A stretch of 64,000 nucleotides of DNA from Dendrobates tinctorius. Its lineage: Eukaryota. Within the stretch, counting starts at the first letter, position 1. Every line of letters begins with the position of its first letter. The DNA is taken from the NCBI RefSeq assembly GCF_039654945.1, contig NW_027361697.1, positions 10,912,001-10,976,000 on the forward strand, in the 5' to 3' direction. Positions 12,001 through 37,000 of this stretch are shown piece after piece. The position numbers were made by a program.

Positions 12001-15000
12001 TGTAACTGTATAGTAAGTGAAAAAAGGGCTTAAAATACTAAAGCAAGAAAGCAGTGGTGAGGTAATAAAAGAAACAAAAAAAAGTGTAAAAGACAAGAAA
12101 ATTCAACGTGAAATGGAGAGATAAGAAATATATTTTAGCTACATAAATAATAAAAATAATAAAAAAAAATAGAAAGTCTTAGTAAACCTCTTGGAAAAAA
12201 ATTTGTGGATGATAAAGGAGGATGAAAAAAAAAGTTTATCGCTTTTCACACTGAAAAATCCGATGACAAAAAAAATTATTAGTGATCCTCTGGGCTGAAG
12301 AGGACCTATTTGGCCAGTTTTTGTTCTTATTTCAATTTTCCTGTCCTGAATATATCCTTGGTTTGATAATATCTGCCAAATATTTTTTTTTTAATGATAG
12401 AGGCCTTTTTATTTAAAGCTCAGTTTTATCGTCTTGACAAGGGGGTGTGGCCGACAGGATCCTCTAGGGTGTGACTTTAGGCTGCTCTGCATTATTACCC
12501 CATGAGCAAAGGGGAGGGGGAATATCATAAAAGTTAGCACAAAATAAAAAGCTTATTTACATCTCTGGAACCGTATGGTGGATTTAATAGAAAACAACAA
12601 AGAAATATTTAGAGGAGTAGTAGGTATAAGAAGAAAGGAAAATACTGGCCACTTTTGTACTCCCTGAAAGGTCCTCGTTATATGTCACCCGTTCCAGTTA
12701 GAGAGACCCATTATTGGAGGGTACTCGTAATTCTAAAAATATCTCATTTCATAAAGTCATGTCAGAAGTTGAGCTTAGGGTAAGAATGTGGAGGCTATGA
12801 CCCCCCGACGCTTCCCTGATAAAGTTGTATGTTGGTCATAGACATTATAATACTTGCACTCAACTTTCTAAAGACGGTGGAATAAAGCTGAAAGTGTCTA
12901 AAAAGGCGCCTTTTTAGCAATTGCTGAAAGACTTAGCATTGAGACCCCTTTCAAACCCAACTAGTAATACGCCTTGTTCTCATGACAAAAAGACTTATTT
13001 TCATTTGATGCTTTATAATACTTACATTTCTTTTTTTTTTTAATTTTCTTTTAACCGGCTCAAAGATTGGCCACACTCAGTACATTGTCCTGTTCGGAAA
13101 GGGAAAAAATATATATATTTCAATAAGATTTATGTGAAAGATGGAAAGAAAATGACATAAATTAGCTTCACTGTATCCAACACTAATTCCAAAATATTTT
13201 TTAGCAACGATATTGTATGACAGTTCTTTTATCCATTTTATTTCTTATACCGTGTTCATTTCTATATCTAGTGTTGCATTTGGATTACAAATTAAAAACT
13301 TCCCCCAGTGTCGCTGATAGAGCACTTCCATACATACAGTCCATCATTTCGAAGCTAAGACAAAGGACCACTGAGTGGCCAATTAGCGGCAGCTTACAGG
13401 ACACTTGTCTAAATTAGCAGTTTAATTGCCACATAGAACTTTTAAAGGTTTTGGCATCAAAACTTTAATCGTACATGAAGACGGAAAGTAACTCTATTTA
13501 CACATGGAACTGAGAGAGTGACAAAATTAAATGCGTTGTATGCATTTTCAAAGCAAGTACAGGCTCTTCGACCCGATACAACACTGATAGAATGAGATGA
13601 GATAAAATCTAATAGAAACAAAATGAGCATATCCCAGTTGTAAGTAAACGGTAATAGTACACATAAATAACATGGGGTACTTAGTAAGCACTGTTTTTGA
13701 TAGAAAAAAAGTGTAAAAGCCATCCCACCACGACAAGGTGAACCCAATCGGGAAGGTCCTATCCTTTAGTGTTAAAACCTCACCTTGTATCAAGTAGCCT
13801 CAATGTAGATAGGGGCAGAGGAGGGTTGAGGTCCGACTGTTCAGGCATCCAGCCATTGGAAGTTATATAAATTAAATGCCTACCTAAAAAAAAAAAGGAC
13901 CACACCCCTGTTTGGAGCATCACAATTTGGGTTCACCTTGACGCGGTTGGATGGCTTTTATGCTTTTTTTAATCAAATCTATGTTTACCAAGGACCTTAT
14001 GATATTTATATACTATTACTATTATATAATATTACTATTTACTTACCGCAGGGTATTTGTCCATTTTGCTTCTATCCTAGGCTTTGCCTGTTAAATGGCC
14101 ACAGTGTGAACGTGCTCTAATACAATGCATGGATACTAACTTATGGTCCGGTTCATTTCTTTACTTTTACTGACAGGACTGAAGAGGAGGACCATTCCTC
14201 TACTAGCTTAGCATGTGTTATTTCAAATGATTTTCTATAGAAGACAACTTCTCTCAAATCCAACGTTATATATAACAGAATGATTAAATTATTTGAACAT
14301 GAAATCTAAATGATAAAAAGTAGCAGGAATTCTTAATCTCACCACAGTACAGATAATGTCATTGCCGAAGTGATTAGAAAGTTCATTCTGTAAAAAAGAA
14401 AAGAAAAAGTATCGTTTTAATCGTATTGAGCAAACGAACCATCTAAAAAGTCTGAAACCTAAATTTCATGTAGCTGTATTCCCAATATCACATCTGAAAT
14501 CTCCCGTAGTTCTGCAAATAGAGAATCTGAAAAAATGGTTGATTTCAATTTTTTTTTTAAATGGATGTATTCATCATTATTAGGATCTCATGTAACCTGT
14601 CATTAATAATGCTTGGCATTCACATTCAAAAAGAAATACTTTTAAATGACACTAAGGCCTTGTTCATATGTCCAATTTTTGTGTACGAGTGCCATCTGTG
14701 GTTTTATATGTCCGTGATTTTTCACGGACCGAGCGGTGTGTGAAAAATCAAGGAGACATGCCTGAATTTGATTCGATCAAAATCGATGATGCAAGTCTAA
14801 GGGTTTGTGAAAAAATCGGCCACACTCAGATATCTAACTTCCAAGTGCAGTATGATTTTTTTGGACTGGTGTAAAGGTAGAGAAACTTATTTCTTTTATC
14901 CTCGTATGTGAAAAAACGGAGGATTCTTGGACCACACTCTTTTCAAACATTGATCAAAATTATTGGTCCAATTTTCCTGTACATGAGAAAATCGGATGTT

Positions 15001-34000: not shown

Positions 34001-37000
34001 TAATACAGTTAAATATTACAGTATGTAGTATATATAATAATGTAAAATTGGTACATATTTGGAGATTATTGAATGTTATGCCTAGAAGAAAAGAACAAGC
34101 TTTAACATTAGGGACATTTTTTTAAACTTAAATGCTGCATATATTTTGGGCTAAAAATTAATATTCCAGTTGGGTTTCTTTAAAAAAAAATTTCACACGT
34201 TGTGTTTTTTTATGCTTTTTTCCACAGGCAAAAGCTGCTCTCTTGGCAGAAAGAAACTTGGGTCAAAAAGCAGGTTTTGCTTAGTTTTTGTTGCATTTAT
34301 TCCTACATTTGTCTCTTGTGCATGCTGATAAAGTTTAGTGCATAAAAAAATCTGTTTCTACTTCATCAGGTTTTAGCAATAAAAACGCAGCAAAAATTGA
34401 TGCCTAAGTTTTTTTAGCGGTTTTTTTGCACCACCATTGCTTTCAATGGGTGAAATATGGTGAAAAAACACTGAAAGAAGCGACATGCTCCATTCTGCAA
34501 AACCCAAGGCTTTGCACAAAATACTGAGGACAAAAAAAAAACAAGCTGTGTGTATGAGATTTCTGAAATCTCATAGACTATGCTGGTACTGTAAAACGCA
34601 GGTGAAAATTTGCATGGAAGAAATGCTGAAAAAAACGCAACGTGTCAACATAGCCTTATAGCCTCAATTTCACTATTTAAAGTTGAGTTAAAAGAAAAAA
34701 TACCTCGAGTGAGCTCAGACATTTTTTTATGTCTAAACCTAATTTGTCCATGTCTAAATCAATGCCGTATCCTGAAAGGAAAAAAAAGAACAATTAAAAA
34801 AATATTTATTACAAGACCTAATAAATATAGCAAGCAAAATAATATCACAGCTTGTTACATTCATAACTTTCACGTTTCTGCTTTCAAACTATTATATGAC
34901 GCTTGCTCCCTTGAACAAATAGTTGTTTGTAAATATAATATTTTGCTGGTACATTGTTAACTAGATAATATTAGGTGTTAGATAGTAGTTTATGAAAATT
35001 GTACTATTGTTCTAATAAAAATCAGCTCTCCATTCTACTTGGCCCAATGCTACCAAAAACAAATGGTAGTGGGAGCTCTATTGGAAATTTTGCCCAAGCT
35101 TTAAGTTACATCACTGTCCGTTAGGTTTGTGGTGGTCTTGTTATTTTACTATCTGCATAAACAAAGCTGCAGTGTAAAGTATGGACTATTGGCAGAACAG
35201 CGGCCTATAATTAAGCAGAGGCTGGCACAGGGGCGGACATATCATTGGTGCAACCTGTGCACAGGGGTCCACGAAGTAAGGGGGCCCATTTCTGCCTCCC
35301 AAACAGGTAAAATTTTGTATTATGAGGAGCTATTGGACTGCGAAGGGCCCATATATCATTCAGCACAGGGGCCCTCTTCTGCATTTGCCAGTGGGCTGGC
35401 AACATTGTTCAGGGCTATGTGCTAATGTATAAGACCTAAAAATCAGCCAAGCAGCCAACAATGATGTCAATAAATAGAAGGTAGCTAGAAACCAGCATAT
35501 AACTTTCCAGACCGCAAATGGATATAAGAAATCACCAGTTTTTGCTCTTATATTTTTCCTGCTGCTTCCCTGACGAGTCTGTTTTTTATTTATTTTTTTT
35601 TAAATATGCTCAGTGATATGGGCATTTTTATCTAATGCTAATTTTAATGGTCTTTGCCAAAGGAGCATAGCTCACAGGGTAATAAGGCAGAGTAGCCTAA
35701 AGACACACCCCTGAGGATCCCGTAAGCCATGCTCTCTTGGTAAAGACCATAAAACTTAGCACAAACTAAAAAGAACTATATATCTAGAGTTAAAAAAAAA
35801 TGTACTCAGGGGTACAAAGGGAATAAAAAAGAACAAAATATGATCCCATTGTCCACTGTGATTTTAAGTGTAAAGACATTAATTTAGCTCCTTAATATAT
35901 TAATGTAATGTATAACATGTATAATATATCAATAAGTGGCTTACAGTAAATCTATCAGATATCTTACCACTGCTGAAGAGGCCGAGACCAACCAGCAAAA
36001 AGATGGCAATGTTCTTCATTGTGCAGATTGGAGAGTTCACTTCAAGCTACTGATGACTACCGGGCGCTGCACCTCATTTATACCGTTTATGTGCACTGAC
36101 ATCACCAAAGACAGAAGATGAGGAGATTGGCACCGTCATGTGCCAAAACCACAATCTCCTTTAACATTTAAAATTTATCAGCTATTGGCATTACTTAAAA
36201 CAATACACATTGGGAAATTTTCCAAATCCTCACTTTTCTCCAAGGGACTAAAATCAAAGTGTTATTTTTACCATTAATCCCTTCATTTGAGAACAGGATC
36301 CAATGCAACAAATGAATGGTCAGCAATCAGCATTATAACAGACAGTCAATGGTGAACTGTAAAGAATGTCCAGTCCATGATAAATGAAGGAATAGCGATT
36401 TTATTCTGGTTATGGTCGAGTATTTACTTTAAGAAAAATTAACAGACTCCATAAAGAGAATGTTACTGTCTAATGAAGAATTTAAGATTAAGATGCAATT
36501 CGTAGAATTTGCTACAGTTCCAATGGATCTCTATAAAAAAAAAAAGTACTGGATAACCCCTGCTTAATTAATTCAGAACCCCTTAAAAAATAAAAATAGT
36601 TCAAACTCATATCCCAAGGTGGAGCCATTACAGTAATGTTGGCACTACTGGTTCCACAGAGTGACATGATTTATTGTGTCATATATCGGCTGCAGCCAAT
36701 CAGCGATTGCTCATCAGCTGCAGCTCATCAATAATCCATCAAAGCGAACGTCCACTCTGATGAGCGAGAAAAGGCTGCAGCTGAGGATCGGCCGATCAAT
36801 GGCTGCAGTAGAACACGACACTACAATGAAACATCATCCTCCAGGAACAGCGGCGCTGACATTACTGGAACAGTGCCGCCGTTTTTATTTTGTATGTAGC
36901 ACCAGAAAAATCAATGGACCTGTAGTGTGCATAATCGACCTCTTGGGATCAGTAGGGGTTTTAGCCCTCGGACCCGCAGAAGTTGGGAATGTATCCATTA

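Follow-up and report, generated by a model that had tools for sequence, protein, structure and literature searches.

The closest described relatives of the gene considered here are two frog foam-nest proteins, and our statements about both follow the passages retrieved from the papers cited. Lv-ranaspumin (Lv-RSN-1; PDB 4K82 and 4K83) is described as the main surface-active protein in the foam of Leptodactylus vastus, a monomer of 23.5 kDa that has two domains and four disulfides, is not obviously amphipathic, and is thought to open at an interface, possibly by the parting of its two halves (PMC4929970). Some sequence similarity between Lv-RSN-1 and a nest protein of L. fuscus has been noted (PMC5727673). 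Ranasmurfin (PDB 2VH3, 113 amino acids (aa)), a blue protein present in foam nests of Polypedates leucomystax, is described as a dimer of novel fold and unknown function whose cDNA was never isolated; it had no match in the Xenopus tropicalis genome, and even an archaeal origin was considered (PMC2954283, PMC5727673). A 2023 account states that Lv-RSN-1, RSN-2, and ranasmurfin do not share significant sequence or conformation (PMC10146838). The literature passages on Lv-RSN-1 and ranasmurfin that our search returned contain no gene structure, internal duplication, or link between the two proteins, the primary structure papers lying outside that search. Here we describe a gene in a 64,000-nucleotide (nt) stretch of the Dendrobates tinctorius genome (assembly GCF_039654945.1, contig NW_027361697.1, positions 10,912,001 to 10,976,000; hereafter the window), which is a member of the Lv-RSN-1 family and encodes a secreted-type precursor with two homologous four-cysteine units.

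A frog gene of the Lv-ranaspumin family

The gene lies on the minus strand of the window at 13060-36019, spanning ~23 kb with 15 coding exons (E1 to E15). Exon-by-exon searching came before the gene model, which is not one of exons that we joined but that of two NCBI records: XP_073427482.1 (P0001, D. tinctorius "uncharacterized protein" isoform X2, 231 aa, 100% identical over its exons) and XP_073427480.1 (P0004, isoform X1, 235 aa), which equals X2 plus the residues VSGK and whose exons are also 100% identical to the window. It was E13 that led to the gene, through a 58-aa stop-to-stop open reading frame (ORF) that matched XP_073427482.1 with 100% identity over 23 exon residues. A tblastn search with P0001 then located 14 of 14 X2 exons in the window, with the exon parts 100% identical, and a crude splice-site scan for phase-0 exons of at least 21 nt returned 22 candidates, 11 of which were true exons. 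All 14 introns are bounded by GT...AG. Intron 1 is phase 1. The introns that follow E2 all have phase 0, in keeping with the phase-0 exons that a first-pass annotation of the window had proposed; the lengths of E3 to E14 (60, 51, 45, 54, 54, 45, 12, 36, 45, 42, 69, and 45 nt) are all divisible by 3. The limits given in that annotation, 14343 and 34771, coincide with the 3′ boundary of E14 and the 5′ boundary of E2; the gene itself reaches further on both sides, to E1 and E15. The six peptides it had quoted all lie in AG...GT frames: KCLSSLE at 34704-34724, DDHKC at 27976-27990, KVCEM at 23632-23646, KCLHELIQ at 21184-21207, GKLQC at 16100-16114, and IICTV at 14343-14357.

The predicted mature protein has 217 aa, a mass of 24.4 kDa, an isoelectric point of 5.07, and eight cysteines (Cys), and follows a hydrophobic N-terminal leader. 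The N-terminus, MKNIAIFLLVGLGLFSSG, is hydrophobic and nearly invariant across the family. In P0004 the cysteines are at residues 35, 54, 82, 126, 137, 158, 179, and 224, which reproduces the spacings of 19/28/44 versus 21/21/45 given earlier for the two halves. If cleavage occurs after G18, Cys1 would be position 17 of the mature chain; in the Lv-RSN-1 chain from natural foam it is position 18.

An exhaustive HMMER search returned 12 proteins at E <= 0.001, nine of them from frogs (query included) and all labelled uncharacterized. The remaining three (P0006, P0012, and P0013) were dropped as tandem-repeat or unrelated proteins from non-frog sources, so in this protein search homologues were found in frogs only. 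The family members come from Ranitomeya imitator, R. variabilis, Anomaloglossus baeobatrachus, Hyla sarda, Dendropsophus ebraccatus, and Pseudophryne corroboree, the last of which has five near-identical genes in one 90% cluster. A word-index search found two R. imitator proteins besides the query and no others, and the same kind of search with the profile of family alignment A2, in which 8000 candidates were scored, found only four members already known. Neither A2 nor a further alignment, A3, includes the older R. imitator model P0003 (356 aa), which is over-predicted: its extra segments match intronic repeats of the window (32016-32172 and 20510-20599 on the minus strand) at 67-77% protein identity. 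The putative signal peptide is almost invariant in the family, the mature part is 24-43% identical to the query, and the eight Cys and Pro131 are conserved; C158 is absent only from P0008, an exon-skipped isoform. In the R. variabilis protein P0005 (374 aa), residues ~175-300 form a second, divergent family copy that follows a truncated first one and runs from Cys1 to the C-x10-C motif (E 7e-9), which suggests a model merging two tandem paralogues. Within the window, tblastn with seven family proteins found no second family gene, which is weak evidence given exons of 15 aa.

The relationship to Lv-RSN-1 emerges from family profiles. Searched against PDB sequences, the A2 profile matched Lv-RSN-1 (4k82_A, 217 aa) with an E-value of 1.1e-14 (57.8 bits) and the A3 profile with 5.4e-12, while the family member P0011 alone reached it at 3.1e-6. 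Cys1 to Cys7 of the family align with Cys of 4k82_A; Cys8 and the last ~45 residues lie outside the HMMER alignment. P0001 used singly in phmmer against PDB sequences gave a best E of 0.25 and did not reach Lv-RSN-1 at E <= 10. We also compared structures by means of two AlphaFold models, both all-helical and of low confidence. Model 1, from a 9-row alignment, has a predicted local distance difference test score (pLDDT) of 52.7, a predicted template modelling score of 0.50, and 11 helices; model 2, of P0009, from a 12-row alignment with the Hyla sarda protein first, has corresponding scores of 53.7 and 0.48. Foldseek with model 2 ranked 4k83 first and 4k82 next (probability 0.82 and 0.63; E 0.17 and 0.36; ~20% identity), the 4k83 match having template modelling (TM) scores of 0.27/0.35, with no match at E <= 0.001. 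Foldseek with model 1 likewise gave none at E <= 0.001, placed unrelated helical proteins on top, and did not include 4k83 among the matches listed. Since the sequence profiles are significant, we regard the relation to Lv-RSN-1 as settled.

The two proteins also resemble each other in size. The Lv-RSN-1 chain has 217 aa and the predicted mature protein here also has 217, with masses of 23.5 and 24.4 kDa. Lv-RSN-1 itself is described as a two-domain, mostly helical, secreted frog protein with four disulfides (PMC4929970). They differ in that identity is only ~20%, in that Lv-RSN-1 comes from a foam nester, and in that Lv-RSN-1 was sequenced from protein. Other resources were silent. Among the 12 members scanned, none is covered by a Pfam family; whole-protein scans gave sub-threshold noise alone, and 10 stop-to-stop ORFs containing E2-E8, E10, E13, and E14 each gave 0 families at E <= 10; the ESM Atlas yielded no usable feature match and structural neighbours at TM <= 0.38, and a literature search by accession and LOC identifier returned 0 papers on the gene. 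The gene is new to a family that is known but very little studied.

A probable duplication of a six-exon unit

The first-pass annotation had proposed that the exons record an ancient internal duplication pairing E2-E7 with E8-E14, and profile alignment, cysteine columns, and intron mapping all support this. We cut the halves at the E7|E8 boundary and aligned them with hhalign, using eight of the nine rows of A2 after dropping P0008, the exon-skipped isoform. The local alignment of half A with half B scored 26.9 (P 3.3e-4, 76 columns, probability 38%), and the global alignment (P 2.4e-4, probability 20%) placed Cys1-4 on Cys5-8. When half B was column-shuffled 100 times the mean score was 10.0 (standard deviation 1.6, maximum 17.3), with 0 of 100 shuffles reaching 26.9, and a reversed half scored 14.0. 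Single sequences were compared by Smith-Waterman alignment of their halves with 1000 shuffles each; the near-identical paralogues P0015 and P0017 were left out of this, of the MAFFT, and of the exon-block comparisons of halves, and P0008 was left out of the half alignments. Four of the six members were significant (P0010, P0009, P0002, and P0011, whose scores were reached by 1, 5, 12, and 22 shuffles, respectively), and these four had a common cysteine register in which C1-C5 align to C4-C8. In a MAFFT L-INS-i alignment of the 12 half-sequences, all four Cys columns were aligned in 12 of 12.

The agreement of intron positions is the strongest single result for the duplication. In the global hhalign alignment, which is blind to exons, four of the five half-A introns coincide exactly with half-B introns and the other is displaced by 1 residue. 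When seven introns were placed at random 200,000 times, not one placement came as close at every intron, and two were as good in summed distance. In this arrangement E3 corresponds to E9+E10, so that either unit B later gained one intron (E9|E10) or unit A lost it. The two halves can be aligned, are colinear, and have equivalent intron positions and phases, as in a tandem duplication recorded by exons; with phase 0 at every cassette intron, the frame survived the doubling, which can still be read from where the introns lie. Among exon-block profile scores, E2 x E8 is the top cell and the proposed pairing ranks 7th of 720 orderings, but six other orderings score at least as high. The A x B diagonal averages 9.7, compared with 6.9 for A x B cells off the diagonal and 6.9 and 7.0 for off-diagonal cells within the halves.

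The single-repeat, four-Cys homologue for which the first-pass annotation had advised a search is ranasmurfin. It was the second-best match among 177,635 distinct PDB sequences, right after Lv-RSN-1, in both profile searches, with marginal E-values of 0.0021 (A2) and 0.0031 (A3) and four of the four unit-A Cys in register. The alignment joins profile positions 33-133 to chain residues 15-105 and covers unit A only. Ranasmurfin is similar in being a frog secretory protein one unit long that resembles unit A, and it differs in having a single unit where the D. tinctorius protein has two in one chain, which is why we file the latter as a relative of ranasmurfin and not as ranasmurfin itself. Ranasmurfin also differs in forming a covalently cross-linked dimer with a Lys-Tyr-N-Tyr-Lys/Zn chromophore (PMC5727673, PMC2954283).

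The direction of change between these forms can be read in another way. Ranasmurfin could be a secondarily truncated copy that kept unit A only, in which case the two-unit form would be ancestral and ranasmurfin would be silent on a single-unit ancestor. Its match to unit A alone fits this history, as does its chain, of 113 residues, stopping ~8 residues past the stretch aligned to the end of unit A (residue 105). A profile of unit B alone found neither ranasmurfin nor Lv-RSN-1 among PDB sequences at E <= 10, a result that fits truncation and also weighs against the duplication itself. This profile is without power, however, because it misses even the C-terminal domain of Lv-RSN-1, and it is therefore uninformative as to which unit ranasmurfin resembles. 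We consider truncation rather unlikely; it concerns the direction of change only, and the internal duplication would stand with it.

Another alternative is that there was no duplication, and that the halves are alike merely as disulfide-stapled helical segments of similar composition, introns tending to fall between helices. Several further observations weigh against the duplication and in part favour this explanation. Taken singly, the halves of the window protein P0004 show no significant likeness, since 149 of 1000 shuffles score as high, nor do those of P0014 (590 of 1000), and the hhalign probabilities of 38% local and 20% global are modest. The exon-block matrix gives every Cys-bearing exon a score of ~9 with every other, and, as noted above, six orderings equal or exceed the proposed one. 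In the MAFFT alignment the introns correspond more loosely, in that two of five match exactly, a third is displaced by 1 column, and the remaining two are displaced by 5 columns. Because E2 follows a phase-1 intron and E8 a phase-0 intron, copying of a plain intron-to-intron cassette fails to explain the 5′ junction. Confidence is low for the two AlphaFold models (pLDDT 52.7 and 53.7). The domains of Lv-RSN-1 are themselves described as architecturally different, one a six-helix bundle and the other a sheet of three helices accompanied by two short strands and another, fourth helix (PMC4929970). Against a chance resemblance of this kind stand the following results: no column shuffle among 100 reached the profile score and the reversed half fell to 14.0 against 26.9, four of six members are individually significant in the same register, the Cys columns align in 12 of 12 half-sequences, no more than 2 of 200,000 random placements equalled the coincidence of five introns, and a separate single-unit relative, ranasmurfin, exists. 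We therefore judge it improbable that the halves are unrelated.

Least probable of all is piecemeal growth by repeated duplication of single helix-sized exons, in the style of helical repeats and with the A/B pairing as one of several equal registers, which the short, phase-0 exons and some high off-diagonal cells (E7 x E12 at 11.6 and E3 x E14 at 10.9, versus 9.0 for E3 x E9+10) would suit, but against which stand a Cys-bearing pattern (C, C, none, C, none, C) and colinear Cys spacing that repeat exactly once, the diagonal mean of 9.7 against off-diagonal means of 6.9 to 7.0, and a relative, ranasmurfin, that is one whole unit and not one exon.

Weighing these results together, we give a probability of about 0.75 to the reading that this is one gene for a secreted, acidic, alpha-helical, ~24-kDa, eight-Cys protein of the Lv-RSN-1 family whose two units arose by cassette duplication.

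Exons, helices, and surroundings in the window

All exons are on the minus strand. E1 (35968..36019) carries the start codon and the putative signal peptide (MKNIAIFLLVGLGLFSS plus the first base of Gly18), and is followed by the phase-1 intron with donor GTAAGA; tblastn matched residues 1-18 of P0001 at 100%. The mature protein would start in E2 (34704..34771, 68 nt), which contains Cys1 (..KKCLSSLE) and is located by peptide match, tblastn, and its splice sites; it is the partner of E8, with which it gives the highest exon-block score (15.0). E3 (33909..33968, 60 nt, Cys2), the partner of E9+E10, and E4 (30986..31036, 51 nt, without Cys), the partner of E11, are each supported by splice scan, tblastn, and intron mapping. 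E5 (27946..27990, 45 nt), located by peptide match, tblastn, and intron mapping, has Cys3 at residue 5 (DDHKC), and its partner E12 (16073..16114, 42 nt), located by peptide match and tblastn, has Cys7 at residue 5 (GKLQC). E6 (25643..25696, 54 nt), without Cys and partner of E13, is located by splice scan and tblastn and is strongly amphipathic, its hydrophobic moment being reached by 24 of 2000 shuffles. Unit A ends with E7 (23632..23685, 54 nt; peptide match and tblastn), where Cys4 is third from the end (KVCEM), just as Cys8 is in E14 (14343..14387, 45 nt, IICTV; peptide match and tblastn); both of these shared cysteine placements, at residue 5 and third from the end, had been proposed by the first-pass annotation.

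Unit B starts with E8 (21184..21228, 45 nt), which holds the invariant Pro131 and Cys5 (KCLHELIQ) and rests on peptide match, tblastn, and the family alignment. E9 (19974..19985) is a 12-nt microexon encoding VSGK, present in X1 and skipped in X2; comparison of P0004 with P0001 defines it, and it is the sole AG|VSGK|GT match between E8 and E10. E10 (17673..17708, 36 nt, Cys6) and E11 (17304..17348, 45 nt, without Cys) are supported by splice scan and tblastn, and E13 (15197..15265, 69 nt, without Cys) by these two and the database match. E15 (13060..13089) encodes the last nine codons (DNVLSVANL) and the TGA stop, a tail outside the paired units that was located by tblastn.

It had also been proposed that each exon encodes roughly one amphipathic helix. 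In model 1, a helix break is found no more than 2 residues away from 10 of 13 exon boundaries (background 0.48, binomial P 0.03; as good in 276 of 20,000 permutations), but in model 2 this holds for only 7 of 13 (P 0.34), and in model 1 the boundaries E6|E7, E13|E14, and E14|E15 fall inside helices. The six exons of unit A equal in number the antiparallel helices described for the N-terminal domain of Lv-RSN-1, which are six (PMC4929970). For unit A, the idea of roughly one helix per exon is plausible; for the whole protein it is unproven. Amphipathicity held for fewer exons than proposed: of the 13 testable, three (E4, E6, and E12) have a hydrophobic moment reached by at most 5% of shuffles, and the other 10 do not. 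As for the suggestion that any exon could be skipped in frame, this is true arithmetically, and E9 is indeed skipped in X2, but skipping of the E10 equivalent in Anomaloglossus costs an otherwise invariant Cys. That isoform of the Anomaloglossus homologue is P0008, which lacks the nine residues equivalent to E10.

The rest of the window holds repeats and mobile-element sequences, and the CpG observed/expected ratio over the 64 kb is 0.47. Two Alu-type 19-mers had no match even with up to 3 mismatches; on these grounds, and given exons identical to those of a D. tinctorius RefSeq protein, we rejected a human origin of the DNA. Within the gene, the E11-E12 intron holds a 23-bp tandem repeat of 22 copies (16237-16748). 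Just upstream of E1 are a GIY-YIG endonuclease-like ORF (38788-39243, plus strand) and a Tc1/Tc3-type transposase helix-turn-helix fragment (39453-39962, plus strand). At 47761-48672, two masked runs of N (47863-48025 and 48065-48199) are flanked by a (TAACCC)n array that is interstitial and telomere-like and has a higher-order period of 158 bp. The minus strand carries retroelement ORFs (48933-55303) with an integrase (H2C2 and rve) at 52634-54712, a reverse transcriptase at 51532-52092, and RNase H at 48933-49559. Between the latter two lies a 21-bp minisatellite of ~58 copies (50008-51211). Given that the integrase is upstream of the reverse transcriptase on the minus strand, this region may hold more than one retroelement. 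Two long open frames at 59159-62632 (minus strand), one of 396 aa with a BED zinc finger and then one of 760 aa without a Pfam match, look like a hAT/ZBED-type transposase, of which the zf-BED domain alone is confirmed. The sole Rfam match is a partial eukaryotic small-subunit ribosomal RNA (57880-58311, plus strand; model positions 1118-1666, 114 bits), far from any ribosomal DNA context and probably a pseudogene fragment or part of a repeat. Two further arrays are a 33-bp minisatellite of 41 copies (6665-8009) and a 130-bp satellite (62563-64000), which has at least 11 copies and continues past the end of the window.

Origin and meaning of the two-unit form

Under the duplication history, the mature protein would consist of two tandem units of ~100 residues with four Cys each, A from E2-E7 and B from E8-E14, followed by the short tail of E15, and would have originated when a cassette of some six small phase-0 exons was duplicated in tandem. 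The serum albumin family offers an analogy: a secreted, helical, disulfide-rich vertebrate protein whose domain repeats have their counterpart in repeating exon sets. Albumin differs from the gene described here in its three domains and far larger exons, and no sequence or fold relation to it appeared in our Pfam, PDB-sequence, or Foldseek searches. The two-unit form occurs in Hyloidea and Myobatrachoidea, and single-unit ranasmurfin comes from a ranoid frog. Since every full-length member of both Hyloidea and Myobatrachoidea has the eight-Cys form, the duplication would be older than their split, a dating that rests on taxonomy, which was checked for three of the species, D. tinctorius and Pseudophryne among them.

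In the folded protein, units A and B may be packed against each other about a hydrophobic core as a pseudo-dimer, a counterpart to the true dimer of ranasmurfin, with the invariant C-x10-C/Pro segment across the E7|E8 junction as a possible hinge. By analogy with Lv-RSN-1, the protein might serve in a reproductive or other secretion as a surface-active or hydrophobic-ligand-holding component that works when its halves open at an interface. Against this role stands that D. tinctorius is not known to make a foam nest, and any such function in this frog is inferred. The Tungara-frog ranaspumins Rsn-1 to Rsn-6 are also secreted frog proteins and share the common name and foam-nest context, but they are unrelated; none of them turned up in any search here, and Tungara Rsn-2 is stated to have a cystatin-like fold with no similarity to Lv-RSN-1 (PMC4929970, PMC5727673).

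The most interesting lead is a possible common origin of Lv-ranaspumin and ranasmurfin, each of which was published as a unique fold with no relatives. We would put at about even odds a broader scenario in which the two belong to one multi-exon neobatrachian gene family, a four-Cys single-unit dimer became a fused two-unit monomer through duplication of the six-exon phase-0 cassette, and foam surfactants were recruited from an older secreted protein, this last step being suggested by the presence of the family in frogs without foam. Two questions thereby become testable: whether ranasmurfin is frog-encoded, which the passages from Cooper and Kennedy 2010 leave open (PMC2954283), and whether the foam-nest proteins of distant frogs are kin, which is denied in PMC10146838. 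For the family itself, frog genes that NCBI calls "uncharacterized" and that have no Pfam model gain a name and a structural reference (PDB 4K82), together with a gene structure that we believe to be the first for the Lv-ranaspumin family. Its phase-0 cassette would provide a clean vertebrate case of domain doubling still legible in intron positions.

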